Below, one piece after another: positions 1 to 17,553 of a DNA stretch of 27,748 nt. The notes below the pieces were generated by a model. It saw nothing but the letters and a program-made list of their open reading frames with translations. It did not search any database and was not told the DNA's origin. Made by a program: the position numbers and the translations under genes. Numbering within the stretch: the first letter of the stretch is position 1; the number at the start of each line of letters is the position of its first letter. Source of the DNA: Anaerolineae bacterium (GTDB lineage: Bacteria > Chloroflexota > Anaerolineae > Promineifilales > Promineifilaceae); assembly GCA_028284105.1 (NCBI GenBank), contig JANQSK010000446.1, positions 1 through 27,748 of the forward strand, in the 5' to 3' direction.

Positions 1-9
1 ATCAAGCAT
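1..9 (-). CDS. 5' end of a gene running off the left edge (M-L-D...), product unknown
   Basis: On the - strand, AAGGAG (23..18) is followed by an 8-nt spacer and ATG CTT GAT (9..1). Only three codons are visible. Confidence 0.5.
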
Positions 10-53
10 AGGCCAAGCTCCTTATTCAATAGATGAAAGTCGTTGTGTGATTA

Positions 54-169
54 TTAAGTGAAACGAAGTTCCTGTTTTGATTAAAATGACAGCTACAAAT
101 TTCGTTTCCTTGAGGTTCAGAAGCTTATTTTTATCAGGGTTATCTATTTAGCAACTTCGGAACACTTAA
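54..169. mobile_element. 116-bp MITE-like element, copy A, with imperfect terminal inverted repeats
   Basis: The left end TTAAGTGAAACGAAGTT matches the reverse complement of the right end (TTAAGTGTTCCGAAGTT) at 14/17. A second, inverted copy lies at 18477-18591. No coding capacity; intergenic between divergent genes. Confidence 0.7.
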
Positions 170-321
170 TTATTCACCAATTTATAATTTCACCAATCGA
201 TTGCTAGATATCAGTTTTTGGGGAGAAAAGAAACAAAATATTGTGATCAAAACAACGCTCAATAGCTGAGTTGTAACATTTATGTGGCAACTAATGAGAG
301 CACTTTTTATATTAGGCTGGT

Positions 322-331
322 GTGATAAAAT
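322..331 (+). promoter_or_regulatory. Extended -10 promoter element (TGnTAAAAT), probably driving a leaderless trmFO mRNA
   Basis: GTGATAAAAT ends 7 nt before ATG 339, with no SD between. The identical 10-mer precedes hflX. Confidence 0.5.
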
Positions 332-338
332 TAGCCTC

Positions 339-1706
339 ATGGAACAACCGTTAACCGTCATTGGGGGCGGTCTGGCTGGTACAGAAGCAGCGTGGCAAGC
401 CGCATCGCTTGGCGTACCTGTTCGGCTTTATGAAATGCGCCCCCAAAAAAATACACCTGCTCACGTCACAAATAAGCTCGCAGAGCTTGTTTGTAGCAAT
501 TCGCTTGGCTCTTATTTGCCTCATAAAGCCCCTGGTGTGCTCAAGGCAGAATTACGCGGCTTGGGCTCAATGATTTTAGAATGTGCCCAACAAACGGCCG
601 TTCCTGCCGGCTCCTCTCTTGCTGTAGATCGTGAAGGGTTTGCGGAGCTGGTCACTGAAAAAATTGATAAAACCCCCCTAATTGAGCTTGTCCGCGAAGA
701 AGTCACCAAAATTCCTAACACCCCTACAATCATTGCCACAGGTCCACTGACTTCAGATGCGCTTGCTAAAGAAATTCAGGCACTTTCTGGACAAGAGTAC
801 ATGTATTTTTATGATGCGTTGTCCCCGATTGTGCACTACGAATCAATTGACTTTTCAATTGCATACCGTCAATCTCGATATGATAAGGGGGAACAAGTTG
901 ATGGTGATTACATCAACTGCCCCATGACCAAAGAAGAGTATGATCGGTTTGTCGCCGCTTTACTCGAAGGGGAGCTGATCACGCTCAAACAATTTGAGCA
1001 AGAAGACCAGCACTTTTTTGAAGGGTGTATGCCTATTGAGCAAATAGCGCGCCGAGGGGAAAAGGCGTTGGCTTTTGGTCCGATGCGACCGGTTGGCTTA
1101 ACTGACCCGCGCACAGGAAAACGGCCGTTTGCTGTGGTTCAACTCAGACAAGATAATTTGATGGGTTCCTTATTTAATATCGTTGGTTTTCAAACAAATT
1201 TAAAGTGGGGTGAGCAGCGCCGGATATTGCGACTTATTCCCGGATTGGAAAAAGCTGAATTTTTACGGTATGGCATGATGCATCGCAATACGTACATCAA
1301 TGCGCCACAGCTTTTGCATCCTACACTTCAATATCGTGGTCGTTCAAATCTCTATTTTGCAGGACAGATTACAGGCGTTGAGGGATATATGGGAAACGCT
1401 GCGACTGGCTTGCTTGCAGGTTTGAATGCTGCTCGAATGATGAAAGGCAAATTACCTGTCATCATGCCAACCATGACAATGCTTGGTGCGCTGTGCCATT
1501 ATGTAACTCACGCCGAAGCAAAAAACTTTCAACCTATGAAGGCTAATTTTGGCCTATTTCCTATGCCACCCAATAATTTGCCTAAATCTGACCGATATCG
1601 ATGGTATAGCGAAAGAGCATTGACCAATATGCGGCGATTTACACGATCAAATGGGATTAACTATGATCGCGTGGTTGCTGAAGCAGTAACGGAGATGGAG
1701 AAATAG
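339..1706 (+). CDS. trmFO: Methylenetetrahydrofolate--tRNA-(uracil-54)-C5-methyltransferase TrmFO (Gid)
   Basis: FAD-binding [14 protein letters not shown], plus [49 protein letters not shown] and [12 protein letters not shown] place the start at ATG 339 ([11 protein letters not shown]) rather than 282, because homologs begin just before the GxGxxG motif. Confidence 0.95.
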
Positions 1707-1707
1707 C

Positions 1708-2901
1708 TTGTCCCAAAGCTTGAAGCTGTGGCTTCGACAAGAATCGGCATCCTTGTGTGCGGCCGTTTTTGAGAATACACCCCCAGCCTTATCCTTGAAT
1801 CATGATGATGTGTCACAGTTTCTGGCAACATTAGCTGATCATGTTGGGCTGCATTCCGAATTTCAACTTGCTGCAGTTCAGGGTTGGGCATTAACGGCGA
1901 TTGGACAAGATGGTCCTCGCTCCCGTGATTGGCTCTGGGTTCTCCGTTTGCTAAAAGAAGCTTTGATCAAAGCCTTAGACCAAAATATGTCCCCTTCAGA
2001 GGCGCTTAAAAGTTGGCGGGGTCTTGATGAGTTTTTGACCTATGCCATGATTGAGGCCTCTCAGCTAGCAACTGACTTTGAACGCGCAAACTTGTTAGAA
2101 CAAATTGTGCAGCTTCGGAACCAACAAGAGATATTTGAGCGGAGCAAATCTAATTTCATCAATGTGGCAGCGCACGAATTGCGCACCCCTCTTACAATTT
2201 TGGAAGGGTATGCGAATATGATTCGCGCAGAGGCTGAAGAAGGTTCTCGATTCCACATTTACACAGAGGGGCTGGGGAACGGTTTTCGCCGGATGCATGA
2301 AATTATTGGAGATATGATTGATGCATCTTTGATTGATCTCGGTTCTGTCGAGCTCAAGGTGCGCCAAATTAACCTTGAATCCACCATCCGCCTAGTAACT
2401 GATAAATTACAAAAGATTTTTGCAGAGCGAAAAGTTGAATTAATAGTCAGTCCATTCTATGTTGATTCTGAAACCTATGGTGATGAAGAGCGCTTGGCAA
2501 AAGCGTTTACGAAGGTCATCATGAATGGCTTAAAATACACTCCCGACAATGGGCAAGTCAATATTACAGCCGCTTTCATTCGGCAAGATGAAGCATCTGA
2601 TGAGCTAGCAGGGTATATTGACGTTCAAATTAGCGATAGCGGCATTGGAATTGCCCCTGAAAATCAAGACCTCATCTTTAACAAGTTTGCCAGCACGTCT
2701 GCTTATGAACTGCACTCGTCAAGCAAAACAAATTTTAAAGGGGGTGGTGCAGGTTTAGGTCTCGCCATTGTCAAGGGGATTATTGAAGCGCACGAGGGTC
2801 GTATATGGGCAGAAAGCCCTGGCTATGATGAAGAAAAGCTGCCCGGAACAACTTTTCATATTGAGTTGCCAATTTGGATCAATCAGCCGGAAATTGAATA
2901 A
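1708..2901 (+). CDS. Soluble sensor histidine kinase (N-terminal helical domain + HisKA + HATPase_c)
   Basis: H-box FINVAAHELRTPL, N-box KVIMNGLKYT, G1 DSGIGI, F-box IFNKF and G2 GGAGLGLAI. TTG start with GGAG 7 nt upstream, 1 nt after the trmFO stop. No obvious TM segment. Confidence 0.9.
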   Translation: MSQSLKLWLRQESASLCAAVFENTPPALSLNHDDVSQFLATLADHVGLHSEFQLAAVQGWALTAIGQDGPRSRDWLWVLRLLKEALIKALDQNMSPSEALKSWRGLDEFLTYAMIEASQLATDFERANLLEQIVQLRNQQEIFERSKSNFINVAAHELRTPLTILEGYANMIRAEAEEGSRFHIYTEGLGNGFRRMHEIIGDMIDASLIDLGSVELKVRQINLESTIRLVTDKLQKIFAERKVELIVSPFYVDSETYGDEERLAKAFTKVIMNGLKYTPDNGQVNITAAFIRQDEASDELAGYIDVQISDSGIGIAPENQDLIFNKFASTSAYELHSSSKTNFKGGGAGLGLAIVKGIIEAHEGRIWAESPGYDEEKLPGTTFHIELPIWINQPEIE

Positions 2902-2978
2902 CGAATTTAGAGTAAAAGACCGTTGGTACCCGTTTATTATACTTGCCAATGCTCTTTGCTCTTGAATAGAGGATATTT

Positions 2979-4592
2979 ATGGATATTAAAGTTGAAGTCA
3001 AACCAACGGCCGTAACTGTATTTCCTGACAGAGCGCGTGTTACTGCAGTGGGTGAATGTGACGTTTCAGCAGGCAGCCATAAATTGCTTGTGACCCAACT
3101 CCCATTAACAATGCAGCCTGATTCCTTACGAGTCTCTGGGAAGGGAACAACAAGCGTACAAATATTGAGTGCTGACGTTAAGCGAGAATTTTTTGATGAG
3201 GCACCCCAAAAGAATGTTAGAGAATTAGAAGCGGAAATTGAATCGTTAAGCGATCAGCTACGGGATGTTGATGATCAAAAAGCAGGTTGGGAGGCACACG
3301 GCCGTTACCTTGAAGGGATGCGGCAAGCAACCGGCGCTTATGCCAAAGGGCTTTCTCGTGGCACTTCTCAGGTTGAAGATCAACTCAAGATTGTGGCTTT
3401 TTTGCAAGAGCAGGACAGTGCAATGCGAACGGCCGTTTCGAATCTTGATAAGGAAGCCCGTCAGCTGAACAAACAGATTGAGAAGCTAAAATTAGAGCTA
3501 GGTCAGCAATCATCGAGACGACGTGGCAAGCAAATGTATCAAGCCGTGATTGACATTCAGGTTTCAGGTGAAGGCACATTTTCCCCTGAAGTGACCTATG
3601 TTGTTAATCAGGCGAGCTGGCGACCTCTGTATGATGTTCGTTTAAAAACAATAGGTGTGTCGCTTCCTGAAATTGGGATATCAACTTTGGCAGAAATCAC
3701 CCAGCGAACCGGGCAAAGCTGGGATGCGGTTGCTTTATCTGTATCAACTGCCCGACCTGCGCTCAATCAACGATTACCTAAACTCAACCCTTGGCCCATT
3801 GACCAATTCCGCAAACCCGAAATTCGTCGTCCTATGGCAATGGCCGCTCCACCAAAAGCGTCGGCGTTGAGGTCAAAAGCACGTGCCACAGAAGAAACTG
3901 AAATGGTTGGGTTTGCGGCTGAAGCAGAACCTGCTCCCGTTGAAGCTGAGGAAATCGTGGCCCAAGTTGAAGATACAGGAACGGCCGTTCGGTTTGTGGT
4001 CTCTGGCGGTTCGGATATTCCAAGCGATGGTTCACCCCATAAAACAACTTTGGCTAACTATCAGCTAGAGCCCAAACTTGATTTTGTCGCTGTTCCAAAA
4101 CACACAGATGCTGTTTACCGTCGGGCAACCACCAAAAACATCTCCGGTGCACCTTGGTTAGCTGGACAGGCTAATCTGTTTGTAGATGATGAATTTATTG
4201 GCAAGACATCCATTGACTATACGGCCAAGGGTGGGGAAATAGAGCTATTGCTTGGTGTTGAAGATCGCATCACGATTAAACGTGAAATGACACGGCGAGA
4301 TGTGGATAAGAAAATGTTAAGCGATCAGCGTCGAATCCGCTTTGGCTATGAGATTGAGGTTGAGAATTTGCTCGATACGGCCGTTAGAGTTGAAATTCAA
4401 GATCACATCCCGATTTCTAGACATGAGCAAATCAAAGTCAAGATGCAAAAAACGGACCCTGACCCACAAGATGTAAGCGACATGAATTTGATGGAGTGGT
4501 TGTTACCATTAGCTTCCAAACAAAAATCAACGATTGCCTACGAATTCTTAGTAGAACATCCACGCTCGCTACAGGTGGCGGGCTTACCGTGA
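2979..4592 (+). CDS. DUF4140/DUF4139 (mucoidy inhibitor MuiA-like) protein
   Basis: N-terminal VTVFPDRARVT, a central coiled coil, YVVNQASWRPLYDVRL, AEITQRTGQSW...LSVSTARP, and C-terminal GEIELLLGVE...VRVEIQDHIPIS. SD-like AGAGGA upstream. Confidence 0.85.
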   Translation: MDIKVEVKPTAVTVFPDRARVTAVGECDVSAGSHKLLVTQLPLTMQPDSLRVSGKGTTSVQILSADVKREFFDEAPQKNVRELEAEIESLSDQLRDVDDQKAGWEAHGRYLEGMRQATGAYAKGLSRGTSQVEDQLKIVAFLQEQDSAMRTAVSNLDKEARQLNKQIEKLKLELGQQSSRRRGKQMYQAVIDIQVSGEGTFSPEVTYVVNQASWRPLYDVRLKTIGVSLPEIGISTLAEITQRTGQSWDAVALSVSTARPALNQRLPKLNPWPIDQFRKPEIRRPMAMAAPPKASALRSKARATEETEMVGFAAEAEPAPVEAEEIVAQVEDTGTAVRFVVSGGSDIPSDGSPHKTTLANYQLEPKLDFVAVPKHTDAVYRRATTKNISGAPWLAGQANLFVDDEFIGKTSIDYTAKGGEIELLLGVEDRITIKREMTRRDVDKKMLSDQRRIRFGYEIEVENLLDTAVRVEIQDHIPISRHEQIKVKMQKTDPDPQDVSDMNLMEWLLPLASKQKSTIAYEFLVEHPRSLQVAGLP

Positions 4593-4598
4593 TAAAAT
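4589..4598 (+). promoter_or_regulatory. Extended -10 element (GTGATAAAAT) overlapping the upstream stop codon; probable leaderless hflX promoter
   Basis: TGnTAAAAT ends 6 nt before ATG 4605, with no SD. Identical to the element before trmFO. Confidence 0.5.
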
Positions 4599-4604
4599 AA
4601 CGAT

Positions 4605-5912
4605 ATGACAAAAGTTTACCCAACTGCACCACCACGAGAGAAAGCCTATTTGGTGGGTGCTGGATCAAAAAATGAACGGCCGTTGTTGCCTATCGAGGAT
4701 AGCGTTGAAGAACTGGGCCGTTTAGCAGATACTGCCGGATTAGAAGTTGTTGGCCAAGCCATCCAGCGTTTTAATCGACCCGATCGCTCAACCTATATTG
4801 GCTCAGGTAAAGTCGAAGAAGTCAAGATGATGGTTGAGGAATTAGGGGCTGGCGTTGTCATCTTTGATGATGAGCTTTCACCACGTCACCAGAGAGAACT
4901 TGAGAAGATCTTTGGTGAAGAGATCAAAGTCTTGGATAGAACGGCTTTGATTCTTGATATTTTTGCCCTACACGCCAACACGGCAGAAGGGAAGCTTCAA
5001 GTAGAGTTGGCTCAGCTTGAATACCGTGTCCCCCGTTTAACGCGCATGTGGACTCACTTGGCTCGACAGGCAGGTGGTCGTGCAGGTGGGGCTGGCGGAG
5101 GTGTCGGTTTGCGTGGTCCTGGTGAAACCCAGCTAGAAGCTGACCGCCGAGAAATCGGTCACCGTATAAGCTTTGTAAAAGATCAGCTTGAAAAAGTTCG
5201 CGCACGACGTGAACGTCATCGTATGAAGCGCCAACAAACAGAATTGAAAGTAGTTGCGATTGTTGGTTACACCAATGCCGGAAAATCAACCTTGCTCAAC
5301 CGACTGACGGATGCTAATGTGCTTTCCGCTGATATGCTATTTGCGACGCTTGATCCAACAACAAGAAAAGTTCAAATGCCAGGCGGGCGAGAAGTCCTTT
5401 TTACGGATACGGTAGGATTTATTCAAAAATTACCAACCCATATTGTGGCTTCTTTCCGTGCAACGCTTGAAGAGATTAAAGATGCAGATATGCTGCTGCA
5501 CGTTGTAGATTCAACCCATCCCAATGCCGGAGCTCAAATTGATTCGGTCGAAGATACGCTAGCAGAGCTTGAAGTTGATCATTTACCCGTTGTTGTTGCT
5601 TTGAATAAAATTGACCAGCTGCCAGAAGGGCTTCCTCCTGATGCAAATTTAGATATTGATGCACCTATGGTGGGGGTATCAGCCCATACCGGGGAAGGGA
5701 TTGAGGATCTTCTCACCACAATCGAAGCTGTGATGACGCGCTACATGACTGAAATTATGATTGAGCTTCCTTATGCAAAAGGAGATTTGCGCTCACTGTT
5801 TTATGAACGTGGTCAAGTTGATAGTGAAGAGCCCAATGATCATGGTTTGCGGATTTACGGCCGTATTCCTCATCGTCTGGTGCCTTATTTTGAACCCTAT
5901 TTGGTGAACTAA
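4605..5912 (+). CDS. hflX: Ribosome-splitting GTPase HflX
   Basis: YIGSGKVEE, DRTALILDIFA, EGKLQVELAQLEY, GLRGPGETQLE, G1 GYTNAGKST, LFATLDPT, G3 DTVGF and G4 NKID. Confidence 0.97.
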   Translation: MTKVYPTAPPREKAYLVGAGSKNERPLLPIEDSVEELGRLADTAGLEVVGQAIQRFNRPDRSTYIGSGKVEEVKMMVEELGAGVVIFDDELSPRHQRELEKIFGEEIKVLDRTALILDIFALHANTAEGKLQVELAQLEYRVPRLTRMWTHLARQAGGRAGGAGGGVGLRGPGETQLEADRREIGHRISFVKDQLEKVRARRERHRMKRQQTELKVVAIVGYTNAGKSTLLNRLTDANVLSADMLFATLDPTTRKVQMPGGREVLFTDTVGFIQKLPTHIVASFRATLEEIKDADMLLHVVDSTHPNAGAQIDSVEDTLAELEVDHLPVVVALNKIDQLPEGLPPDANLDIDAPMVGVSAHTGEGIEDLLTTIEAVMTRYMTEIMIELPYAKGDLRSLFYERGQVDSEEPNDHGLRIYGRIPHRLVPYFEPYLVN

Positions 5913-5926
5913 TAAATCAGGCAAAC

Positions 5927-5938
5927 TGATTAATCACC
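5927..5938 (+). promoter_or_regulatory. Candidate operator, palindrome TGATTAATCA(CC), copy 1
   Basis: Perfect 10-bp palindrome starting 24 nt before ATG 5951, directly 5' of the GGAG SD. The same 12-mer sits at the same offset before yceI. Confidence 0.5.
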
Positions 5939-5950
5939 GGAGCAATAGTT

Positions 5951-6151
5951 ATGAATGATTTAATTGATCGGATTGGACATTTCTTAGGTGGAAAGCCAGG
6001 ATTGTTACCGTTAATCGGTATTGGCCTCATTTTGCTTAATTTTGTTTTTCAACTTTTTCCAAGCAACTGGTTTGCTGAGGTTAATTTATTTCTTCATATA
6101 GGACTGATTGTAAGCTTGATAGGTATTTTACTGATTCGTCCCCTTCAATAA
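5951..6151 (+). CDS. Small two-TM membrane protein (66 aa), function unknown
   Basis: GGAG SD; two hydrophobic helices (GLLPLIGIGLILLNFVFQLF and LFLHIGLIVSLIGILLI); fills the gap between hflX and the M20 gene. Confidence 0.8.
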   Translation: MNDLIDRIGHFLGGKPGLLPLIGIGLILLNFVFQLFPSNWFAEVNLFLHIGLIVSLIGILLIRPLQ

Positions 6152-6160
6152 AGATTTTTA

Positions 6161-7336
6161 ATGCAGCAACTACTAAATATTTCAAACCATTCAGATATTC
6201 AAAATATTAAAGACAGAATTCGTTCTGAACAAGATGCTCTAATTGATTTAATTGTGCAGATTCAGCAAATACCTGCACCGACGTTTGATGAGGGGACCCG
6301 GGCGCTTTTTATTGAAGCAACGATGAAGCAATATGGTCTCGAGGATGTCAATAAAGATAACATTCATAATGTTTACGGCCGTTATCCCTTTTGTTCAAAC
6401 CCAGCTGGCCCTCCAATTATCATTTCTGCGCATAGTGACACGGTGTTTCCGCATGAAACAGATCTCTCTTATCATAAAAAAGGGTCAAAATTATATGGTC
6501 CAGGTATAGGAGATAATTCGACTGGTGTTGCTGGTATTTTATTTTTAGCAAAGCTCCTCATTGAGGAAAAAATCACATTGAAAAACCCTGTTTGGTTTGT
6601 ATCCAATGTGGGTGAAGAGGGTCTTGGGGATTTAGTTGGCATGAGAGCGGTCGTAGACCGGTTTGGTGAAAAAGCGAAATACATTGTGATTGAAGGTGGT
6701 CTTTTTGGACAGCTTTCTCATCAAGCGATTGGTGTGCAACGCTTCAAAATCTCTGTCGAAACGGAAGGTGGACACTCTTGGGGTAGCTTTGGGAAGACAA
6801 GTGCTATTCATGAATTAGGTCGACTCATTACCCTGATTGCTGATATGAAGGTTCCAAATTCACCAAAAACAACCTTTAACGTCGGGATGATTGAGGGAGG
6901 CACCTCAATCAATACTATTGCGCAACGGGCACACATGCTCCTTGATTTACGCTCTGAACATACAGAAACCCTCGATAAGCTCGTTAAAAGCGTCAAAGCG
7001 ATGGTTCAAAAAGCCAATCGTCAAAGCGATATGCGCACCACTTTTTCAATGGAACAAATTGGTAATCGACCCGCGGGGCAAGTACATCGAAATTCAGAAC
7101 TCGTCCGCCAGGCAATTGAATGTTTGAAGATGGTTGGGCGTTCAAGACCAATATTTATTACTAGTTCAACAGATTGCAATATACCGTTGAGCAGAGGGTA
7201 TGAGTCGGTGTGCATAGGTCTAACGGAATCAAATTTTGCCCACCGCTTAGATGAGCATATTGATGTGACCAACTTGCCTGTTGGCATGCATCAGATGATG
7301 CTTCTGTTGCTTTCAGCTGCGCATTTTGGTGAATGA
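6161..7336 (+). CDS. M20/M25/M40 family metallo-hydrolase
   Basis: ISAHSDTV (HxD), GPGIGDNSTG, NVGEEGLG (EE motif), TEGGHSWG, TTFNVGMIEGGTSINTI, STDCN and AHRLDE. Confidence 0.9.
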   Translation: MQQLLNISNHSDIQNIKDRIRSEQDALIDLIVQIQQIPAPTFDEGTRALFIEATMKQYGLEDVNKDNIHNVYGRYPFCSNPAGPPIIISAHSDTVFPHETDLSYHKKGSKLYGPGIGDNSTGVAGILFLAKLLIEEKITLKNPVWFVSNVGEEGLGDLVGMRAVVDRFGEKAKYIVIEGGLFGQLSHQAIGVQRFKISVETEGGHSWGSFGKTSAIHELGRLITLIADMKVPNSPKTTFNVGMIEGGTSINTIAQRAHMLLDLRSEHTETLDKLVKSVKAMVQKANRQSDMRTTFSMEQIGNRPAGQVHRNSELVRQAIECLKMVGRSRPIFITSSTDCNIPLSRGYESVCIGLTESNFAHRLDEHIDVTNLPVGMHQMMLLLLSAAHFGE

Positions 7337-8115
7337 TGATAGTTGATACCCATTGTCACCTTGACCTCAATCGGTTTGATGAAGACCGTGAGGCCGTTAT
7401 TCAGCGCTCTATTGAAGCCGGTGTGGAAAAAATCATTATTCCAGCATTGGATTTAAATAGCTGTCGTCGTGTACTTCAATTAGCTGATCAATTTACGACC
7501 GTTTACGTCGCCGTCGGCATTCACCCTAATTCCTCTGCAACTTGGAAAGATAGCTGGCTCAAGAAGCTTCGGGAGTTTGCTAAGCATCCCAAGGTTGTTG
7601 CCATTGGTGAAATTGGATTAGATTATTATTGGGATAAATCGCCCAAAGATATTCAGCATCGCGCTTTTTCATTACAGCTCGAATTGGCTGATGAACTTGA
7701 TTTACCCGTAATTGTGCACAATCGAGAATCAGATAATGATGTTGTGGCCCTTTTAAAATCCTCACCGCTAAATGGCAAAGAGAAGCCAGGTGTGCTGCAC
7801 TCTTTTTCAACAAGTTGGGATATTGCAGAGCTTGTTCTTGGGATGGGATTTTACTTGGGGTTTACCGGCCCAGTTACCTTCAAAAAGGCTGAAGGCTTAA
7901 GGGCAGTAGCCAGCCAAGTCCCATTGGATCGCATTTTGGCAGAAACAGATGCTCCTTTTTTGACACCCCATCCTTATCGCGGTAAACGAAACGAACCAGC
8001 CTACACTGCTTTTGTGGTAGAAAAGTTGGCGGAACTTCACGGTATGACGAAAGCAGAGATGGCTCAACGGACAACCGACAATGCACATCGATTGTTTGAA
8101 AGAATAAACGCATGA
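7333..8115 (+). CDS. TatD family hydrolase/DNase
   Basis: VDTHCHL, GIHP, AIGEIGLDYY, PVIVHNRE, GVLHSF and ETDAPFL..PYRGKRNEP. ATGA overlap with the upstream stop. Confidence 0.93.
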   Translation: MMIVDTHCHLDLNRFDEDREAVIQRSIEAGVEKIIIPALDLNSCRRVLQLADQFTTVYVAVGIHPNSSATWKDSWLKKLREFAKHPKVVAIGEIGLDYYWDKSPKDIQHRAFSLQLELADELDLPVIVHNRESDNDVVALLKSSPLNGKEKPGVLHSFSTSWDIAELVLGMGFYLGFTGPVTFKKAEGLRAVASQVPLDRILAETDAPFLTPHPYRGKRNEPAYTAFVVEKLAELHGMTKAEMAQRTTDNAHRLFERINA

Positions 8116-9059
8116 GCAAGAACTCAAACCCCCGATTATCAATCATCACGGTGAGTTGGAATGTGAGCAAACTGCTTCACGACTGTTTGAGTTCGGTAGA
8201 GGCTGTTCGAGACGCTCTCCATTTAGAAATGGTTGTCGTTGATAGTGCATCATCTGACGATACACCTGATATGGTTGAGCGTGATTTTCCTTGGGTCAAT
8301 TTGATTCGCTGCACTGAAAACGCTGGATTTCCGAAAGGCAATAACATTGGTATTGAAGCATCGACAGGTGAATATGTCATTTTGCTCAATCCTGACACGG
8401 TCGTAATTGAAGATGCATTATCACAGCTTTGTGATTATCTAGATGAGCATCAAGACGTTGGGGTCGTGGGTCCCAAGTTGTTAAATCCCGATGGCACGAT
8501 TCAATCATCACGACGTCGATTTCCTACCTTCCTAACAGGTGTTTTTGAAAGCACTTGGCTCCAAGAGTCAGCCCCAAAACAAATCTTAGATCATTATTAC
8601 GCGCTTGATTTGCCGGATGATGAAACGGCCGTTGTTGATTGGGTGATGGGGGCTGCGCTATTAACGCGACGCTCGATCATTGACCGAGTAGGTGGGCTAG
8701 ACGAAGCTTATTTTATGTACTCAGAAGAACTGGATTGGTGTCGCAGAATTAAAGAGGCGGGGTGGGAAGTGGTTTATTTACCTTCTGCCCAAATCATCCA
8801 TCACCTTGGTAAAAGTAGCGAACAGGCTGTCACGCATCGGCACATTAACTTTAATAAAGCAAAATTGCGTTATTTCAGAAAGTATCATGGGATAGTTGTT
8901 GCATTTGCATTACGTGCCTTTTTGTTGTTAACTTATCTTCAACAGCTACTGTTAGAGGTATTCAAAGGAATAATTGGCCATAAACGGCCGTTGCGCTGGC
9001 AACGCGCAAAATCATATTGGCAGGTTGTTCGATCCGGGTTGCGTCCTGCGGGATATTAA
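8112..9059 (+). CDS. Glycosyltransferase family 2 (WbbL/rhamnosyltransferase-like)
   Basis: SIITVSWN, VVVDSASSDDT, NAGFPKGNNIG, LLNPD, WVMGAALL, YFMYSEELDWC. ATGA overlap with tatD. Confidence 0.9.
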   Translation: MSKNSNPRLSIITVSWNVSKLLHDCLSSVEAVRDALHLEMVVVDSASSDDTPDMVERDFPWVNLIRCTENAGFPKGNNIGIEASTGEYVILLNPDTVVIEDALSQLCDYLDEHQDVGVVGPKLLNPDGTIQSSRRRFPTFLTGVFESTWLQESAPKQILDHYYALDLPDDETAVVDWVMGAALLTRRSIIDRVGGLDEAYFMYSEELDWCRRIKEAGWEVVYLPSAQIIHHLGKSSEQAVTHRHINFNKAKLRYFRKYHGIVVAFALRAFLLLTYLQQLLLEVFKGIIGHKRPLRWQRAKSYWQVVRSGLRPAGY

Positions 9060-9095
9060 TTGAAATTGTAGAACCACAACGAGAAGGTTGGTTAC

Positions 9096-9452
9096 ATGAA
9101 AACAAAGAAAGTATCAATAGAATTGAGTGAAGCAGATTTCGAAGCATTAGAATCAATCTCTAAAGCGTGTGGGTGGAGTATGAGCAAGGTTGTTGGGCAA
9201 TGTGTAAAAAGCGGTATGCCCCCTTCGTTGAACAAAGTTCCTGAACTGTTTCATGATGAGCTATTGGCATTAAACAAGTTGGACGACCGAAAGTTGCTGG
9301 ATGTTTTAGAAGATAATTTACCTTCTAAGAAAAAAGAGACAGCCGCTCACAAAAAGGCTAACTTTAGTGCATTGCGCAAAACATATGCTTTAAGATTACT
9401 TCGTTGGCGGGGTCATTCAATCCCGCTCCCCTTTGAAAGTATGATCGGATAG
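9096..9452 (+). CDS. Hypothetical protein with an N-terminal ribbon-helix-helix (CopG-like) signature
   Basis: KKVSIELSEADFEALESISKACGWSMSKVVGQCV fits the beta-strand-helix-helix pattern; C-terminal LRKTYALRLLRWRGH. The fold assignment is inference. Confidence 0.7.
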   Translation: MKTKKVSIELSEADFEALESISKACGWSMSKVVGQCVKSGMPPSLNKVPELFHDELLALNKLDDRKLLDVLEDNLPSKKKETAAHKKANFSALRKTYALRLLRWRGHSIPLPFESMIG

Positions 9453-9459
9453 AAACAAA

Positions 9460-10638
9460 GTGCGAATCGGGCTAGTTACAGGTGAATTCCCCCCTATGGA
9501 GGGGGGCGTTGGTGCATTTACAAATGAGTTAGCAAAAGCCTTAGGGGAAGCTGGGCACGATGTTTTTGTGTTAACTTCCCGATTAGCCCGACCACCCGAT
9601 CAACCTCGACAAATCTCACTTTTATCTGAACCAATCGATTTAGGTTACGCTACGTTATTGCCTATTGTTCGAAATTGGCGATGGGCAACCAATCGCGAGA
9701 TAGTTGATTGGTCAATCCGCTTCGACCTCGATGTCGTCAATATTCAATATCAAGCGGCGGCCTATGGTATGTGGTTGCCCGCCATTAATTTTGCCCCTAG
9801 AAGGTTACGCAATGTGGTGAAAACGGCCGTTACCTTCCATGATTTGCGCCACCCCTATTTTTTCCCAAAAGCTGGAAAACTTCGTGATAAAGTGGTTCAT
9901 TTGATGGCTCAACAAGCGGACGGTGTATTAACGACAAATCCCGATGATTTTCAAAAAGTGAAGGAGCTTGCCTGTGAAAAAGTCACAGAAATTCCCATTG
10001 GGAGCAATATCGCAGCGTATAAACCTAATCATATCGAAGTCGAGGAGGCCAGGTCCGAATTAGGGGTGCCTCAAAATGGGGTGCTTTTAGGTTACTTTGG
10101 CTTTTTGAATGAAACAAAAGGGGCGGAGTCACTCTTAACGGCCGTATCAAAAATGGCGCCTTCGCATCATGTGGTATTCATCGGAGGCCAACTAGGTGCA
10201 AGTGATGCGTCAAACAATGCCGCTTATTTAACCCACCTTCGCCAAATAATTCACACATTGGATATTGAAGATCGCGTTCATTGGACTGGATATCTGTCTG
10301 ATAGTCGGGTTTCAACGTATTTGTACGCAACAGATATGATGGTGATGCCTTATAAAGATGGTGCATCGCTCAGACGTGGAACGCTTATGGCTGCATTGGC
10401 ACATGGACGGCCGTTAATTTCCACGTGGCCGATTGGCCCAACCCCTTTTTTGGAGCATGGTAAAAATGTTTGGTTTGTACCGATTGATGATCCAGATGCC
10501 ATCGTAACGGCCGTAGCTAACATCAAGACAAATGGCATGCTTCATGAGAGTTTAGCTATTGGGGCCACTCAAGTTGCCCAAAACTTCACTTGGGAGTCCA
10601 TTGCAAAGAAAACGGCCGTATTTTTTGAATCATTGTGA
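9460..10638 (+). CDS. Glycosyltransferase family 4 (GT-B)
   Basis: GTG start; MRIGLVTGEFPPMEGGVGAFT, TFHDL, YFGFLNETKG, WTGYL, DMMVMPY..GASLRRGTLMAALAHGRPLI, and F(T)WESIA. Confidence 0.9.
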   Translation: MRIGLVTGEFPPMEGGVGAFTNELAKALGEAGHDVFVLTSRLARPPDQPRQISLLSEPIDLGYATLLPIVRNWRWATNREIVDWSIRFDLDVVNIQYQAAAYGMWLPAINFAPRRLRNVVKTAVTFHDLRHPYFFPKAGKLRDKVVHLMAQQADGVLTTNPDDFQKVKELACEKVTEIPIGSNIAAYKPNHIEVEEARSELGVPQNGVLLGYFGFLNETKGAESLLTAVSKMAPSHHVVFIGGQLGASDASNNAAYLTHLRQIIHTLDIEDRVHWTGYLSDSRVSTYLYATDMMVMPYKDGASLRRGTLMAALAHGRPLISTWPIGPTPFLEHGKNVWFVPIDDPDAIVTAVANIKTNGMLHESLAIGATQVAQNFTWESIAKKTAVFFESL

Positions 10639-10691
10639 TAAATGTCCATGCACTTAATAGATAAAGCAATAAGGAAAAATAGGAGATACCC

Positions 10692-11132
10692 ATGTCAAAC
10701 GATCCAAATGAATTAAAAAAATTTGTAGAAAGCCATGGTGGAATTCATGCTGTTCGTGGTGGTGGGGCCAACAATCGTTCTTGGAATGGCATCCGGTACA
10801 AAACAGGCCTATCTGGTAAGAATGTAGGGTCAAAAAACTTATCTATGAATGTTGCCACTGTGCCTCCAGGTGCAATCGCCTATGCGCATATTCATGATGG
10901 ATTTGAAGTGATGCTTTTTATTCTTGAAGGAAAAGTGCGACATGAATATGGGCCAGATTTAGTTCACTCAGTTGATCATGAAGCAGGGGATTTTATTTAT
11001 ATTGAACCTGGAATTCCCCATGAGGTCTTTAATATTGGAGATGGTCCACTGATGGCGGTAGTAGCCCGCTCTGCTGCAGATGAGTGGGATAAAATCATCG
11101 ATTACCCATCAAAAAACAGGCCAAAAGAATAA
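10692..11132 (+). CDS. Cupin-domain protein (RmlC-like, uncharacterised family)
   Basis: Cupin motif 1 VPPGAIAYAHIHDGFEVMLFILEG and motif 2 AGDFIYIEPGIPHEVFN; strong AGGAG SD. Confidence 0.88.
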   Translation: MSNDPNELKKFVESHGGIHAVRGGGANNRSWNGIRYKTGLSGKNVGSKNLSMNVATVPPGAIAYAHIHDGFEVMLFILEGKVRHEYGPDLVHSVDHEAGDFIYIEPGIPHEVFNIGDGPLMAVVARSAADEWDKIIDYPSKNRPKE

Positions 11133-11133
11133 A

Positions 11134-12276
11134 ATGGCTTTAGACCTGTCAAATATTCGAAATTCATTTCCGATTTTTGAAAACAAAACCTTTATTAACA
11201 GTTGTTCTAAGGGGGCACTTGCCACTCAAGTTCAACATGCTTATGAAGCCTATTTAAAAGATTGGGCTGAATTAGGGTCTCCATGGGAGCTTTGGGTTGA
11301 CCAACTGGAGGAGTTCCGTAGCTTAGTTGCTCAACTGCTCAATGCCCATCCAGATGAAATTGGTGTCACAACGTCAGTCTCGGCGAGTGTTAATGCCCTA
11401 GCTAGTTCGCTTGATTTTTTAGGGAAGCGTTGTGAAGTGGTCGTTGATGATTTTGCCTTTCCGACAACAGCCCAAATTTGGCATGCTCAATCAGCTCGTG
11501 GTGCTATTGTTAAGCATGTCCCAGAAACGAATCATGAGATTCCTTTGGAGCAATATGAAGCTGTTATTAGTGAAAAAACGGCGCTTGTTTCATTAACGCA
11601 TGTTTGTTATCGAAATGGGGTCATGCAAGACGTTTCAGAAATTATCGAGCTTGCCCATCAAAAAGGGGCACTTGTCATGCTGGATAGTTATCAACTGCTT
11701 GGCACGATGCCTTTTGATGTTAATGTTGCTCAACCTGACTTTTTAGTAGGGGGAATGCTGAAATATTTGCTGGGTTCTTCGGGATTGGCATTTATTTACG
11801 GCCGTAAATCACTTATTCCCACATTGACACCCCAAAATAGCGGCTGGTTTAGTCAAGACAACATCTTTGCGATGGATATCTATCAAAATACCCCTTCATC
11901 TTCCGCTAGACGATTCGAATCCGGTACGCCACCTAATCCAAATGTGTACGCGGGGATAGCTGGATTGAAGCTTATTCAGGATATTGGCTTAGACAGTATT
12001 GATGCCCACCGAGTTGATATAACAGGTGCAATAAAACAAGGGGCAAAAGAAAGAGGATTTCAACTCGTCACATCCGAAGACCCTTCTAAACATGGTCCAA
12101 TGATTACCATTTATTCGAACGACCCAGCTAAACTCGTTCGTCTAGTAGAACTAGAAGGTGTTGTTATATCGCATAGAGATAGCAACCTTCGAATTTCCCC
12201 TCACTTTTACAACACGCTCAATGATGTAGATCGGCTTTTAGATGCACTCACGAGTCACAAAGAGATGTTGGTTTAG
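11134..12276 (+). CDS. Aminotransferase class V PLP-dependent enzyme (kynureninase/cysteine desulfurase-like fold)
   Basis: FINSCSKG, DFAFPT, LDSYQLLG (PLP Asp), GGMLKYLLG (Schiff-base Lys), RRFESGTP, and LRISPHFYN. Start at ATG 11134, 1 nt after the cupin stop. Confidence 0.88.
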   Translation: MALDLSNIRNSFPIFENKTFINSCSKGALATQVQHAYEAYLKDWAELGSPWELWVDQLEEFRSLVAQLLNAHPDEIGVTTSVSASVNALASSLDFLGKRCEVVVDDFAFPTTAQIWHAQSARGAIVKHVPETNHEIPLEQYEAVISEKTALVSLTHVCYRNGVMQDVSEIIELAHQKGALVMLDSYQLLGTMPFDVNVAQPDFLVGGMLKYLLGSSGLAFIYGRKSLIPTLTPQNSGWFSQDNIFAMDIYQNTPSSSARRFESGTPPNPNVYAGIAGLKLIQDIGLDSIDAHRVDITGAIKQGAKERGFQLVTSEDPSKHGPMITIYSNDPAKLVRLVELEGVVISHRDSNLRISPHFYNTLNDVDRLLDALTSHKEMLV

Positions 12277-12304
12277 TCCTTCGCAAGAGCTATACTCCCC
12301 CCTT

Positions 12305-12997
12305 ATGTTTCGATACCGATTGATAAGCTTCTTTATGCATTTAATTCGGACCTTGCTACTTGCTCGTATTAAGGTTACTGGATTGGAGAATGTTCCTCCC
12401 AAGGGTCCTTGTGTGGTCACCACCAATCATATGAGCACGGTTGATACGCCTATTCTGCTCATGGCATTTCCCATTCAGGAATGGTCCTTTTTTGCAGGCG
12501 AAAAATGGAAATCCCACCTCATATTTGGACCAATTATGGCATGGTTGGGAGCCATTTATATTAATCGGGAATCGATTGATCGTAAATCGATAAGACAAGC
12601 ACAAGAAGCCTTGATGGGTGGGGCAATTTTTGGCTTAGCGCCAGAAGGGGCGCGCTCGAAAGATGGCAAATTAGAAAAAGCCAAAGGTGGAGCCGCTTAC
12701 CTCGCTCATCGCGCTAAAGCTCCCATCTTGCCTGTGGGTATTGTCAATTCAGATGTCTTATTCCAAAATTTCAAGCGATTTCGCCGAACTGAAATTGAGG
12801 TTCACATTGGGAAAATCTATACATTACCTCAGCTGGATCGACGAGCCAAAGGGGAAGATTTAGATGCATTAACGCATCTGATCATGTCAAAAATTGCTGC
12901 ACAATTGCCTGAGCGATATCATGGTGCATATGCTGAGAGTTCCGCGTTAAAAGCGATCAAAAATGGAGAAGATCCTTGGCCCTATTGTCATGAGTGA
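12305..12997 (+). CDS. Lysophospholipid (1-acyl-sn-glycerol-3-phosphate) acyltransferase family, PlsC-like
   Basis: NHMSTVD (HX4D), APEGARS (PEGxR), and APILPVGI. I place the start at ATG 12305, because the longer ORF overlaps the previous gene. Confidence 0.88.
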   Translation: MFRYRLISFFMHLIRTLLLARIKVTGLENVPPKGPCVVTTNHMSTVDTPILLMAFPIQEWSFFAGEKWKSHLIFGPIMAWLGAIYINRESIDRKSIRQAQEALMGGAIFGLAPEGARSKDGKLEKAKGGAAYLAHRAKAPILPVGIVNSDVLFQNFKRFRRTEIEVHIGKIYTLPQLDRRAKGEDLDALTHLIMSKIAAQLPERYHGAYAESSALKAIKNGEDPWPYCHE

Positions 12998-15755
12998 ATT
13001 GCCCCTAGAAGTTCAAAAACAGTTAGATGAAATTGAAAAATCGATTGCTGAAACGCAAGCGCGTTTTAAAGATTTAATGTCGCCAGATGAGATTAAGCAG
13101 CTGGTTGTTAAGTTTGAAGCAAAAAGAGATAAACTGCTTGCTCAATATGGGGGACAACAGGGAAAAACGGCCGTTTTGGCCCAGCGTTTTTGGCAGCAAT
13201 ATCCTGACGTTGATCACCCAGAGATTATTCAAGCCACGACCTCTTATTTCGACTACATCAATAATCGTTTTAGCCTTCTTAACTTTCAAGGATTGGGCTT
13301 TGCCAATCAATTGCCAGGCCGATTAAAACTTCGAAATTTATATGTCCCATTAAAAGTTCGCCCTTTTTTGCCAGAGGGTGAGACATGGCCACGACAATTT
13401 GTGACTGATATTGATAATCATGAACCTGTGGAAATATTGCCTCTGTTTGATGATGAATCAGGACTGGTTATTTTAGGGGATGTTGGGGCTGGCAAGACAA
13501 CCTTTTTACAATATATTGCGCTTTCATTGGTGAATGGAGAAGATGTTCATCAGACGGTCAACGGCCGTATTCCGCTCGCAATGCCTCTCTCTGCCTATTA
13601 CGACGAGCTTGAAAATAACAACATCTCCCTTTATGACTTTTTTGTGACCTATTTTGATAATTTAGGAGGTAGTCTGCCTTTTGGGCAACTATTCAAGGAA
13701 GTTGTGGCACGTGGGAAAGCCCTCATTCTCCTAGATGGTCTTGATGAAGCGCGGGATGCACGATTAAGAAATCAGGCGGTGCAAAACATCGTTGATTTTA
13801 TTGCGTTAAATAAAGGGAACGGCAATAAATTTTTAATAACCAGTCGACTCGTTGGTTATAGGCAAGCACGCATTTTTGCTGACGGTGTTTTAGAATGCAC
13901 ATTAGCCGATATTGATGAACTGCTTGGTGGGCGTTTTATTGAACGCTGGTTGCTGTTCGTTGAACAACAAGAGGCAGATGGTGAAGCTATCAATCGAGAA
14001 AAAGAGACGCTTCGCAAGCAGATTTGGGGGAATGTGGCCCTCTCTAGGCTTGCCTCAAACCCTCTTTTGCTCACGATCATGCTAATGATGCAACGACAGG
14101 GCCTTTCCCTTCCGCATCGTCGTGTCGAGCTCTATCATCAATTTATCAATACCCTTATCAAAGATTGGAATCTAGCCCGAAATCCACGCAATATGCCAAA
14201 TACGGCCGTTTCTGATGTCCTAGAAACGATGAGGACATTAGGGCCTCTTGCGCTTTGGATGGAAGAAGACAACCCTGGTGCTGGTTTAGTGCAGCGAGAA
14301 GATTTTCGTCGCGAGCTTGTGAATGTGTTTCGACAAAGAAAAGCAGAAAATCCAACTGTTGAAGCCAATCAATTTCTAGATGACATCAAACAGTTTAGCG
14401 GAATACTTGTTGAACGTGAAGATCAAAACATTGCGTTTTTGCATCGCTCGCTTCAAGAATATTTGGCTGCCTGGGCCATAGCGCACAAAGGGCAAAATAG
14501 CGTTGAGCCTGTTGTAGAATTTATAGCTTCCCATATTATCGATAAAACTTGGTGGGAATTATTGCGGTTGTCGGTGGGCATCATTGGGATTGTGCAGCAG
14601 CGGGAAGATACGGCGGGCATTATCTTGAGCCGTGTTATGGATTCTTCTTTTGGTGAAGGAGGAATTGGATTGACCTTAGTGGGTGAAATGCTAGCTGATA
14701 TTGGTCAATCTGGTGTGACTGTTGAGGTGTACGATCGCATTCTCCGTCATTTATTCAAAGCGCTGCAGGATGAAAACGATGTCAGTGCAGATTGGCGAGT
14801 TGGAATTGGGCAAGTTATTGGCCGAATGAATAAATGGAACACAATTGTCGATGAAATTCAATTTTGTTATGTGCCAAGTAGCGATTTTTATTTGGGCGAA
14901 CAAAAATATGAACAGCTTGTGACTGTATTAGATACTCCTTATTGGCTTAGTCAGCATCTGATAACCCACAGTCAATTCTTTGAATTCGTCGAAGATGATG
15001 GCTATAAAAATCCGGAATTTTGGGTAGAAGCAGCGACCGTTTATCGCTGGCGTTCAGGTGAAGTGATGGACTGGGAGCGATTAGGGTGGCGAAAAGAACC
15101 ACATGATTATGGCTATCCATTTCATTTACCAAACCATCCAATTGTTGGCGTTTCTTATTATGAAGCACTCGCGTTTACTCGATGGTTAGAAAAACGATGG
15201 GTTGCGCGTGGATTCATTGAGCCCCATTGGCAGGTTCGATTACCAACTGAAATTCAGTGGGAGAAAGCAGCTAAAGGTGGCCTTCAACTGCCCCAATTCC
15301 CAGTTGAGGCTGATGTTCACCTGTTGATTCCCGTTTATGATGCCTTTTTTGAGCCACTTTTTGATAATTCAATGCCTAAACGGCCGTTTCCATGGGGAGA
15401 CGAACCTCCCTTAAATCATGCCAACTTTAGACACCCAAACAACCAACATTTTGATGAAAGCAGTAACTTTGGCCTTTGCTTTTCTAAGGGTAAAAGCCCT
15501 GTGGGTTGTATGGATATGAGCGGGAATGTTTGGGAATGGACGCGCTCACTATTACGGCCGTATCCATATAATCCTGACGACGGACGCGAAACCATGGATA
15601 TCCAGCTATTTCATACGCTGGCATTACGTGGTGGCGCTTTTTGGTCGCTTGAAGAACAAATACGAACCGTATCGCGCATAGGTCGTAGCCCAAATACACG
15701 TTCAGATAGTATAGGTTTTAGAGTCTGTGTGATGGTTCCCAATCCCCCGAGATGA
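12990..15755 (+). CDS. NACHT NTPase - FGE-sulfatase (SUMF1-like) domain protein with an N-terminal coiled coil
   Basis: Walker A GDVGAGKT, Walker B LILLDGLDE, ITSR, LASNPLLLT, FLHRSLQEYLAA. FGE motifs: HPIVGVSYYEALAF, RLPTEIQWEKAA, DMSGNVWEWT, RGGAF, and IGFR. Start ATG 12990 overlaps the upstream stop (ATGAGTGA). Confidence 0.9.
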   Translation: MSELPLEVQKQLDEIEKSIAETQARFKDLMSPDEIKQLVVKFEAKRDKLLAQYGGQQGKTAVLAQRFWQQYPDVDHPEIIQATTSYFDYINNRFSLLNFQGLGFANQLPGRLKLRNLYVPLKVRPFLPEGETWPRQFVTDIDNHEPVEILPLFDDESGLVILGDVGAGKTTFLQYIALSLVNGEDVHQTVNGRIPLAMPLSAYYDELENNNISLYDFFVTYFDNLGGSLPFGQLFKEVVARGKALILLDGLDEARDARLRNQAVQNIVDFIALNKGNGNKFLITSRLVGYRQARIFADGVLECTLADIDELLGGRFIERWLLFVEQQEADGEAINREKETLRKQIWGNVALSRLASNPLLLTIMLMMQRQGLSLPHRRVELYHQFINTLIKDWNLARNPRNMPNTAVSDVLETMRTLGPLALWMEEDNPGAGLVQREDFRRELVNVFRQRKAENPTVEANQFLDDIKQFSGILVEREDQNIAFLHRSLQEYLAAWAIAHKGQNSVEPVVEFIASHIIDKTWWELLRLSVGIIGIVQQREDTAGIILSRVMDSSFGEGGIGLTLVGEMLADIGQSGVTVEVYDRILRHLFKALQDENDVSADWRVGIGQVIGRMNKWNTIVDEIQFCYVPSSDFYLGEQKYEQLVTVLDTPYWLSQHLITHSQFFEFVEDDGYKNPEFWVEAATVYRWRSGEVMDWERLGWRKEPHDYGYPFHLPNHPIVGVSYYEALAFTRWLEKRWVARGFIEPHWQVRLPTEIQWEKAAKGGLQLPQFPVEADVHLLIPVYDAFFEPLFDNSMPKRPFPWGDEPPLNHANFRHPNNQHFDESSNFGLCFSKGKSPVGCMDMSGNVWEWTRSLLRPYPYNPDDGRETMDIQLFHTLALRGGAFWSLEEQIRTVSRIGRSPNTRSDSIGFRVCVMVPNPPR

Positions 15756-15813
15756 CCGTAACAAGAGGGGCTACGGCCGTTCCTCCACACCCTTTAAGAA
15801 TGCTGGAGCCTGC

Positions 15814-16002
15814 TCATTGCCTTCCACTTGAATGGGAAATTATCCCGAGAGAATGAGATCTCATTAACCAAAAACCATCAGCACAATTTAGACTTTGCTG
15901 ATATAGAATGGGACCTGCGGAGAACACAAATGTTCCCACTGGTTCATCCATAACTTTCCGGTTAATCAAACGTTCTCTGTTGGGTATTGATTTCATGTCC
16001 AA
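15814..16002 (-). CDS. Candidate small protein (about 60-62 aa), unknown function
   Basis: Perfect AGGAGG (16015..16010), then 7 nt, then TTG GAC ATG AAA. The frame is open to TGA at 15816..15814. No recognisable motif. Confidence 0.45.
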   Translation of the reverse strand: MDMKSIPNRERLINRKVMDEPVGTFVFSAGPILYQQSLNCADGFWLMRSHSLGIISHSSGRQ

Positions 16003-16626
16003 CGTCGAACCTCCTATAAGCATTTTTGTTAGAGGGAGCCCCGAAACTTCTTGCTACCCATAAACAGAATAAAATAAAATATTGTTTATTACCGCTAAAC
16101 GACCTTCAGGTGAGTTGTTTAATAGGTTACATAACTAGGTAAATCACAAAAAGTTTTAAAAATTAGATGAGCTTCAATGATTGTGATTTCCTATGTGATT
16201 GATAGTCTTTATAAGACATCTTTTTTAGAAAACTTTCTGTCAGTTACTTAAACAATTCTGATGACAACGGCCGTTACATTAAATGCCATTCATTCCAGAC
16301 CAATCGATCTACGATCATATATGCTAATGTGTTACAAGTTTTAGAGATGGACTCCGAATACCTTTGACTGGAACAAACTACTATTAATAGGTATAACGAT
16401 ATTTTAGCCCAAATGTTCGTGAATTTTGTGTAAATACACCTAATTTCCTCTTGATCTTCATGGCCCATTAGTACTACATCAAGAGTTGTCCTGAAATTTT
16501 GAAATATTTCTTTCAAGGTGCACAAATTTTCTTTTATTCAACAGTAAAATTTAAGGTTGCCACTCATTGTCTACTCATGTAACACAAACATTTTCTTAAC
16601 ATCATTCAAAGAAAATAGCTTGAAAT

Positions 16627-16638
16627 TGATTAATCACC
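16627..16638 (+). promoter_or_regulatory. Candidate operator, palindrome TGATTAATCA(CC), copy 2
   Basis: Identical 12-mer to 5927-5938, again starting 24 nt before the ATG and abutting the AGGAG SD. Confidence 0.5.
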
Positions 16639-16650
16639 CAGGAGTGTAGA

Positions 16651-17553
16651 ATGAAAAATCGAATACAAGTAGTGGGGTTGGCCGCCATCATTGTTCCCTT
16701 TTTAATCGGTTGTGGACTTCAAGCAGTTGAAGAGCCTTCCGCACCAATTGAAGCAGTACCAATTGAATTGGAAGAGGATACAGATACAGCAGAAGCAGAG
16801 GTTGAAGAAGCTGTTGTTGAAGAAGAATCAGAACCAGAAGCAGAAGAGGTGATGGAAGAGCCCACACCTGAACCGGTTGAAGAACCAACGGCAGAACCTG
16901 TTGAGGAACCCACTGAAGAAGCCATGGAAGAGCCCACACCTGAACCGGTCGAAGAACCAACAGCAGAGCCTGTTGAAGAACCCACATCTGAACCCGTTGA
17001 AGAACCTGAAGCAGCCATTACCATATTTCAAATTTCTCAAGATGAGTCAAATGTTCGCTTTGAACTCGATGAGGACTTAGCAGGGAATCGCATAACAGTG
17101 GTTGGTGAAACAGATCAAGTTGCTGGGGAACTGGCTGTAGATTATAGTGATTTATCGTCAGCACAGGTGGGTGTGATTCAAATTAATGCGCGTACGCTTG
17201 TAACAGATAACGAATTCCGAAATAGGGCTATTAACAATCGTATTCTTGATACAGGTACATTTGAGTTTATTACATTTACACCATCAGCCGTTGAAGGATT
17301 GGATGGGGCAATCGCAGTTGGTGAAACTGTAGATTTTACTTTGGTCGGCTCTCTCACTGTTCGTGATATTTCACAAGATGTGACATTTACCGTGACAGCA
17401 ACGGCCGTTTCTGATACGCAAATCACAGGCAGCGCAAGCACCATCATTTTGCTTGAAGATTATGAAATTACCATTCCCCAGGTGCCTAATGTTGCTAACA
17501 TTGAAGAAGAAGTAGAACTCTATATTGATTTCACTGCGAATGCGGTACAATAA
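16651..17553 (+). CDS. YceI-family (polyisoprenoid-binding) lipoprotein with a long acidic Pro/Glu linker
   Basis: Signal peptide with lipobox FLIGC; E/P-rich linker; YceI-like domain ESNVRF...GETDQVAGEL...INARTLVTDNEFRNRAI...GSLTVRDISQDVTF. AGGAG SD. Confidence 0.85.
   Translation: MKNRIQVVGLAAIIVPFLIGCGLQAVEEPSAPIEAVPIELEEDTDTAEAEVEEAVVEEESEPEAEEVMEEPTPEPVEEPTAEPVEEPTEEAMEEPTPEPVEEPTAEPVEEPTSEPVEEPEAAITIFQISQDESNVRFELDEDLAGNRITVVGETDQVAGELAVDYSDLSSAQVGVIQINARTLVTDNEFRNRAINNRILDTGTFEFITFTPSAVEGLDGAIAVGETVDFTLVGSLTVRDISQDVTFTVTATAVSDTQITGSASTIILLEDYEITIPQVPNVANIEEEVELYIDFTANAVQ
16843..17007 (+). repeat. Intragenic tandem repeat: two 72-bp units (16843-16914, 16915-16986) built from about 24-bp EPVEEPT subunits, plus a partial unit
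   Basis: EEVMEEPTPEPVEEPTAEPVEEPT / EEAMEEPTPEPVEEPTAEPVEEPT / SEPVEEP. The DNA units differ mostly at synonymous positions. Confidence 0.92.

Follow-up and report, generated by a model that had tools for sequence, protein, structure and literature searches.

A dispersed MITE family with IS630-type ends in coral-associated Chloroflexota

Two inverted copies of a non-coding element

The DNA analysed here (the window) is a stretch of 27,748 nucleotides, contig C1243 of a Chloroflexota MAG from a coral metagenome (G000; 6.6 Mb in 1,287 contigs, 78% complete, 44% G+C). The sequencing run in which the window is best represented is likewise a coral metagenome. Copy A of the element occupies positions 54 to 169 on the + strand, including the flanking T-TA and TA-A; the element proper, AGTG...CACT, runs from 57 to 166 and is bordered by TA at 55-56 and 167-168. 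Copy B (18477-18591, - strand) is inverted with respect to copy A, and its element proper extends from 18480 to 18588. An intact TA is found at 18589-18590 and a degenerate TC at 18478-18479, the outer flank of copy B reading TTCA (18477-18480) and not TTAA. The element is 115-116 bp long and non-coding, and neither window copy overlaps an ORF of at least 80 aa.

An earlier note on this DNA, made from the sequence alone, had described the two stretches as intergenic, inverted copies of a MITE-like element that share a 27-nt identical end and enclose a variable core. All of this was reproduced. A repeat search of the window returned two pairs of inverted arms, 54-126 with 18519-18591 (73 nt, 90% complementary) and 140-169 with 18477-18506 (30 nt, 87%). 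Pairwise alignment of both copies gave 84% identity overall. Starting at the left end, 27 consecutive bases are identical; part of the loop in the right half is variable, and the similarity ends sharply at TTAAGTG... and ...CACT(T/G)AA. Both copies are indeed intergenic. The terminal inverted repeats also have the sequences that had been given, TTAAGTG-AAA-CGAAGTT and TTAAGTG-TTC-CGAAGTT, and are kept in more than 94% of the 132 family copies described below. The note had seen no transposase in the window, and a search with Pfam DDE_3 (PF13358) found none in the entire assembly.

Each terminus of the element pairs with its own internal inverted copy. In copy A, the left terminus (AGTGAAACGAAGTTCCTGTTT, 57-77, + strand) contributes the arm GAAACGAAGTT, and its internal inverted copy (AAATTTCGTTTC, 97-108, + strand) pairs with 60-70 to give hairpin 1. 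In the other half, the internal inverted copy of the right terminus (GGTTCAGAAGCTT, 114-126, + strand; family consensus GGTTCCGAAGCTT) pairs with 153-165, giving hairpin 2, and the right terminus itself (AACTTCGGAACACT) lies at 153-166 on the + strand. Each strand, taken as a single strand, folds better than its shuffles (z -2.9 to -3.6). It is conceivable, and in our view improbable, that this double-hairpin build is a selected design and not an accident of deletion. Each half may, for instance, present a pair of binding sites to the transposase or promote mobilisation by forming a cruciform or a single-strand hairpin, and inserted copies may serve as bidirectional transcript-end or stability elements in the genus. 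A diverged relative at C1150:6967-7080 of the same assembly has the same left terminus, and the arms of its hairpin 2 differ in sequence (GGTTTGGTAGC and GCTTCCAAAC) yet are complementary. This relative may derive from a different IS end; if the selected design were true, its altered and still complementary hairpin 2 would be the first hint of it.

Copy number, size variants and distribution

A blastn search of the window's own genome gave 90 HSPs of the element, including 45 full-length copies on different contigs with shared sharp boundaries and unrelated flanks. The resemblance of copies A and B is thus far beyond chance. Among the matches listed, copy A is 83-94% identical to the other full-length matches in its own genome. 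When up to two mismatches were tolerated, 75 left and 75 right termini were counted in G000. The sole congeneric genome, G001 (JBCCFD01, 'MAG: Chloroflexota bacterium isolate P01_B01_bin.122'), holds 87 non-redundant full copies in the part of it that was fetched, giving a non-redundant set of 132 copies (45 from G000 and 87 from G001). The many further genomic copies that had been expected are thus present, and the two window copies are members of a dispersed mobile-element family with dozens to hundreds of copies. Since 29 exact 21-mers correspond to about 75 termini in G000 and 83 exact matches were found in G001, scaling leads us to estimate roughly 200 copies in the latter genome.

The family appears to be narrowly distributed. 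An exact search with the 21-nt terminus in about 186,000 species genomes, records of the own genome excluded, matched 74 stretches, all of them in G001. A DNA search covered 41 genomes from the genus, family, order and class. G000 and G001 were the only carriers, and the 39 genomes from other genera gave nothing beyond one weak partial match of 32 nt (G011). Mean pairwise identity of the copies is 85% in G000, 87% in G001 and 84% between the two. No pair among the 132 copies is identical, and signs of recent movement are thus lacking. With 85-87% pairwise identity within a genome, the copies look like insertions that decay neutrally, so that the family may by now move slowly or not at all, above all in G000, where no transposase was detected.

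Three size variants were observed in G000. A form of about 61 bp occurs at three loci; two 8-nt direct repeats (AAACTTCG) enclose 55 bp of the element, and the loss of these 55 bp explains the shorter form. Six loci (C1182:1132-1358, C1282, C184, C22, C682 and C878) carry a form of about 228 bp, in which a 113-bp insert with (C)TAA on either side sits in the MITE loop. This insert consists of two further hairpin modules, AAGTAATTTTCA...TGAAAATTACTT and GGAGAACAAAA...TTTTGTTCTCC. The second module was also seen adjoining other MITE copies, in the flanks of C370 and C976. This suggests further TA-targeting mini-elements inside one another. The third variant, of about 140 bp, looks like a deletion derivative of the 228-bp form. 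The family contributes to breaks in the assembly, as 24 of the 90 element matches lie within 150 nt of a contig end. One 9.6-kb contig of G001 (L143, JBCCFD010000320.1) carries four exact MITE termini at a coverage of 284x, compared with roughly 13-140x, mostly near 17-30x, for the others listed; it could represent a replicon present in several copies or a region in which repeats have been collapsed.

Two other repeats were noticed in the window. At 16134-16250 lies a member of a second, different MITE-like family of about 117 bp, for which G000 gave 65 HSPs and 50 near-full copies, with ends of the form TA|GGTAAATCACAAAAAGTTTT...AAAACTTTCTGTCAATCACA|TA. The right end of the window copy (TTAAGTAACTGACAGAAAGTTTT) resembles the left end of the IS630 relative L063 of G011. 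In one X2 contig, 16134-16248 is missing and 8 different letters (CAATCACA) stand in its place; a related strain may thus carry an empty or rearranged allele. The palindrome ACGGCCGT is found 39 times in the window and 7,791 times in the 6.6 Mb of G000, about 58 being expected from base composition; this corresponds to roughly one per 850 bp. G000, a genome of Chloroflexota, thus has a highly iterated palindrome that is HIP-like. In the same genome, AACGGCCGTT occurs 4,180 times and the cyanobacterial HIP1 (GCGATCGC) only 63 times.

Insertion sites and a probable IS630-type parent

The boundaries were examined in all 132 copies, which are without exception intergenic. The consensus is T-TA-AGTGAAACGAAGTT...AACTTCGGAACACT-TA-A, with the boundaries T-TA-AGTG...CACT-TA-A, and base composition becomes random beyond ±4 nt. 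On the left, the counts are T124 T128 A128 A126, and on the right T115 T129 A130 A118. The central TA is the most conserved part of the boundary (128-130 of 132, against 115-126 at the outer and inner T/A). Of the 51 copies with a non-canonical boundary, only two show the same variant on both sides. From these two observations, duplication of TA within a preferred TTAA fits better than a 4-bp duplication. The conserved boundary, described earlier as TTAA-bounded repeats, is better read as a TA target within a preferred TTAA, which is the habit of IS630.

Occupied and empty orthologous sites were compared between the two congeneric genomes. A copy in G001 (L073) lies in the loop of a terminator-like hairpin, and the orthologous site in G000 (C706:242-303) is empty, the flanks to the left and right of it being 97-100% identical. 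The intergenic region of G001:C156 that is orthologous to the site of copy B has no element, and in it the sequence just downstream of copy B, TG.CATG...ACGGCCGTT...TTTAGGACA.AAAATG, is conserved. Three more G001 sites (L037, L043 and L049) are filled while the syntenic G000 sites are empty. When paralogous sites were searched for with joined flanks, one good pair emerged, the orthologous L073/C706, together with a single diverged paralogue; neither is base-exact in the loop. The empty sites that the earlier note had proposed as a way to define the target duplication thus exist, but none is base-exact. The reasons are that the two species are too diverged in intergenic DNA, with about 75-80% identity even within genes, and that Logan unitigs break at repeats. 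In Logan contigs of four runs aligned to positions 1-20000 of the window, no joint skipping copy A or B was seen, the unitigs ending at the repeats, and a search for other assemblies encoding the flanking lipoprotein found none.

IS630 elements (IS630, ISY100) and the eukaryotic Tc1/mariner elements encode a DDE_3 domain and N-terminal HTH domains, duplicate TA and prefer NTAN or CTAG. The earlier note had considered an IS with matching ends, and one was found. A search of G001 with Pfam DDE_3 gave one match, an ORF at a contig end (P0001, locus L056, contig C548). It scores 33-34 bits (33.2 for P0001, above the cut-off of 28.6), has a conserved LNPIE motif and ends in ...SKQELRFT. The reverse complement of its final 24 nt is identical to the MITE left end (24/24); in copy A this corresponds to the terminus at 57-77 together with the preceding TTA. 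Similarity between this IS end and the MITE extends, decaying, to about nt 46. The matching IS end is the transposase-distal right end, and a MITE copy adjoins the P0001 ORF and shares its TTAA.

A second contig end of G001 (C281) carries the N-terminal HTH ORF, preceded by TTAAATAAAAAGAAGTTCCTAATTTGAAAAA, the interior of which resembles the MITE right end. The right terminus of copy A accordingly has an interior like the left end of the G001 IS (GAAGTTyCTAAwTTGAAAA). Over 30 positions, the MITE right end has 21 in common with each G001 IS end, i.e. a partial match to the IS left end. The cognate IS is seen in G001 only as these two contig-end fragments. In the 78% complete, 1,287-contig assembly of G000, searches with P0001 and with the orfA of L063 were as empty as that with PF13358. 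Relatives in other genera of the family have two ORFs, orfA with HTH_32, HTH_29 or HTH_33 and orfB with DDE_3. No close full-length protein was present in a library of 1.84 billion proteins, where the best match to the 65-aa fragment of the cognate IS had 54% identity; the cognate IS is a distinct lineage in that it has at most 54% identity to any library representative over 65 aa.

A metagenome scan provided a complete relative of about 1.1 kb, L147 (JAAUYD010121146.1), which is not the cognate IS itself. Its orfB, in which DDE_3 scores 98.6 bits, shares 51 of 65 residues (78%) with P0001, and its orfA, with HTH_32 and HTH_33, shares 39 of 51 residues (76%) with the C281 fragment. L147 is inserted within a methyltransferase gene. 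Its termini are TA|AGTGAAAAGAATTTCCTG... and ...CTTCTACT|TA, similar to those of our element and beginning with AGTGAAA. At the junctions, ...tatc-TA-AGTGAAAAGAATTTCCTGATTTGAAAAAG and CAGGAAGTTCCTTCTACT-TA-gaag (...tatcTA|AGTG...CTACT|TAgaag), TA is the sole direct repeat, and reconstruction of the target gives CTAG, into which IS630 elements classically insert. The left and right termini of the MITE, the G001 IS and L147 share the pattern TA-A(G/A)T...GAAnTTyCT...T(T/A)GAAAA, and pairwise comparison of these six termini showed 19-28 identical positions among the first 30.

A further observation concerns the end of orfB. In G001 L056 (C548) and in L147 (1380-1425), its frame has no stop of its own and stays open through the final base of the IS; the TA next to the IS, together with the purine that follows, closes it (TAA or TAG). 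On our reading of these junctions, the target site would thus provide the stop codon, and insertion into TTAA or CTAG would guarantee termination of orfB.

Origin and significance of the family

Taken together, these data lead us to regard the element as a MITE, a non-coding internal-deletion derivative of a two-ORF IS630-family IS, and we assign this full reading of the mechanism a probability of about 0.88. The proposal of an undescribed MITE family is supported by the many copies, the empty sites, the IS630-type ends and the lack of a matching Rfam family. In the proposed mechanism, an internal deletion would have joined the ends of an IS to give the MITE, the putative parent being an element with orfA (HTH domains) and orfB (DDE_3) in the same Chloroflexota genus. 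The transposase would be supplied in trans and would bind the common subterminal core GAAGTTyCT...TTGAAAA at both ends. Cutting would occur at AGTG.../...CACT, and reinsertion would take place at TA, preferably within TTAA, with duplication of TA. The element would have been amplified separately in both species, as no sites were shared among those examined and the consensus shows species-specific differences. It is probably this IS630-type transposase that mobilises the element, and we infer that the MITE's own duplication is TA rather than TTAA.

Three other explanations were weighed. A TTAA-specific element that makes a 4-bp TTAA duplication and depends on a non-IS630 transposase (a piggyBac/IS1380-like or IS5-group enzyme) would agree with the presence of TTAA on both sides in 81 of the 132 copies, and it predicts the same empty site as TA duplication wherever the target is TTAA. 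We nevertheless consider it quite unlikely. The central TA is better kept than the flanking T/A, one-sided deviations are almost never mirrored, the complete relative L147 has CTAA on the left and TTAG on the right, with only TA duplicated, and the terminus of the element belongs to a DDE_3 (IS630) ORF. Less probable still is a REP/REPIN or IS200/IS605 (PATE) hairpin element that moves as single-stranded DNA through a Y1/HUH transposase recognising both hairpins. The two-hairpin build, each terminus being paired with an internal inverted copy, is what such an element would have, and the diverged copy at C1150:6967 retains a complementary hairpin 2 despite its different sequence. On the other hand, our element has true terminal inverted repeats, is flanked by TA at either end and shows no strand bias, an IS630-type DDE ORF ends in its terminus, and the 61-bp derivative lacks both internal arms, yet it is present at three loci.

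A conserved cis-regulatory RNA or operator array acting on neighbouring genes, the alternative named in the earlier note, found no support and is given the same very low probability as the Y1/HUH element. It could account for the better-than-shuffled folding of each strand and for the position of both window copies upstream of genes on the + strand. Against it, Rfam gave no match in the window, and promoter- and terminator-like matches were not above those of shuffles. RNAalifold returned an empty structure for the 132-copy alignment, so pairs were counted on the minimum-free-energy fold of the consensus; across the copies, 6 compensatory double changes stand against 323 that break a pair, which indicates neutral decay and no selected RNA structure. 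The flanks of the copies are random. The neighbouring genes are unrelated and both orientations occur, with 69 versus 63 copies on the contigs and no significant bias relative to co-directional neighbour genes (39 versus 26). Furthermore, the element is missing from orthologous sites in the sister species, and it has the same terminal sequence as one end of an IS. These results already largely refute a regulatory RNA or operator array.

Comparison with known systems places this MITE in a familiar class. It shares with IS630 and Tc1/mariner elements and their MITEs the DDE_3 and HTH domains of the presumed parent and the TA target, TA in CTAG being seen directly for L147; unlike IS630 elements, it encodes nothing and has only the ends of such an IS. 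Correia elements carry IHF sites and promoter elements, and they are not known to have a cognate transposase. For our element, in contrast, a candidate transposase family has been identified, and the scans revealed no functional motif. Correia (NEMIS) elements of Neisseria are 100-160 bp long, with terminal inverted repeats, TA termini, target duplication, high copy number and size variants (PMC2229807, Table 1), and by description and in mode only they resemble the element in size, terminal repeats and TA ends. RUP of Streptococcus pneumoniae is a non-coding, intergenic element of 107 bp with about 100-108 copies, its terminal repeats resemble those of IS630-Spn1 of the same host, and it inserts at TA (PMC2229807). 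Mobilisation of RUP in trans has been proposed (PMC2229807, citing Oggioni and Claverys 1999). RUP with IS630-Spn1 is the closest known system in its mode of action, sharing size class, logic and type of evidence as far as descriptions can be compared. Its host belongs to Bacillota and ours to Chloroflexota, and no relationship is expected. In addition, our element differs from RUP in its 24/24-nt match to one IS end, in a partner IS with two overlapping ORFs and in its unusual build of terminus and inverted terminus as a double hairpin. RUP and Correia elements are confined to Streptococcus and Neisseria (PMC2229807), and the 15 best-ranked literature matches listed included no report of a MITE in Chloroflexota. 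The element works like RUP and Correia elements but belongs to neither; it is a new family of a known, ordinary kind.

The family reveals no new mechanism, and its biology is ordinary. It adds a genus-restricted MITE family, together with its likely IS630-type parent, to an uncultured, coral-associated group of Chloroflexota in which mobile elements have barely been described. It accounts for part of the heavy fragmentation of these MAGs, and its insertions are strain-level markers. The transposase and its short substrate form a ready pair for testing IS630 mobilisation.
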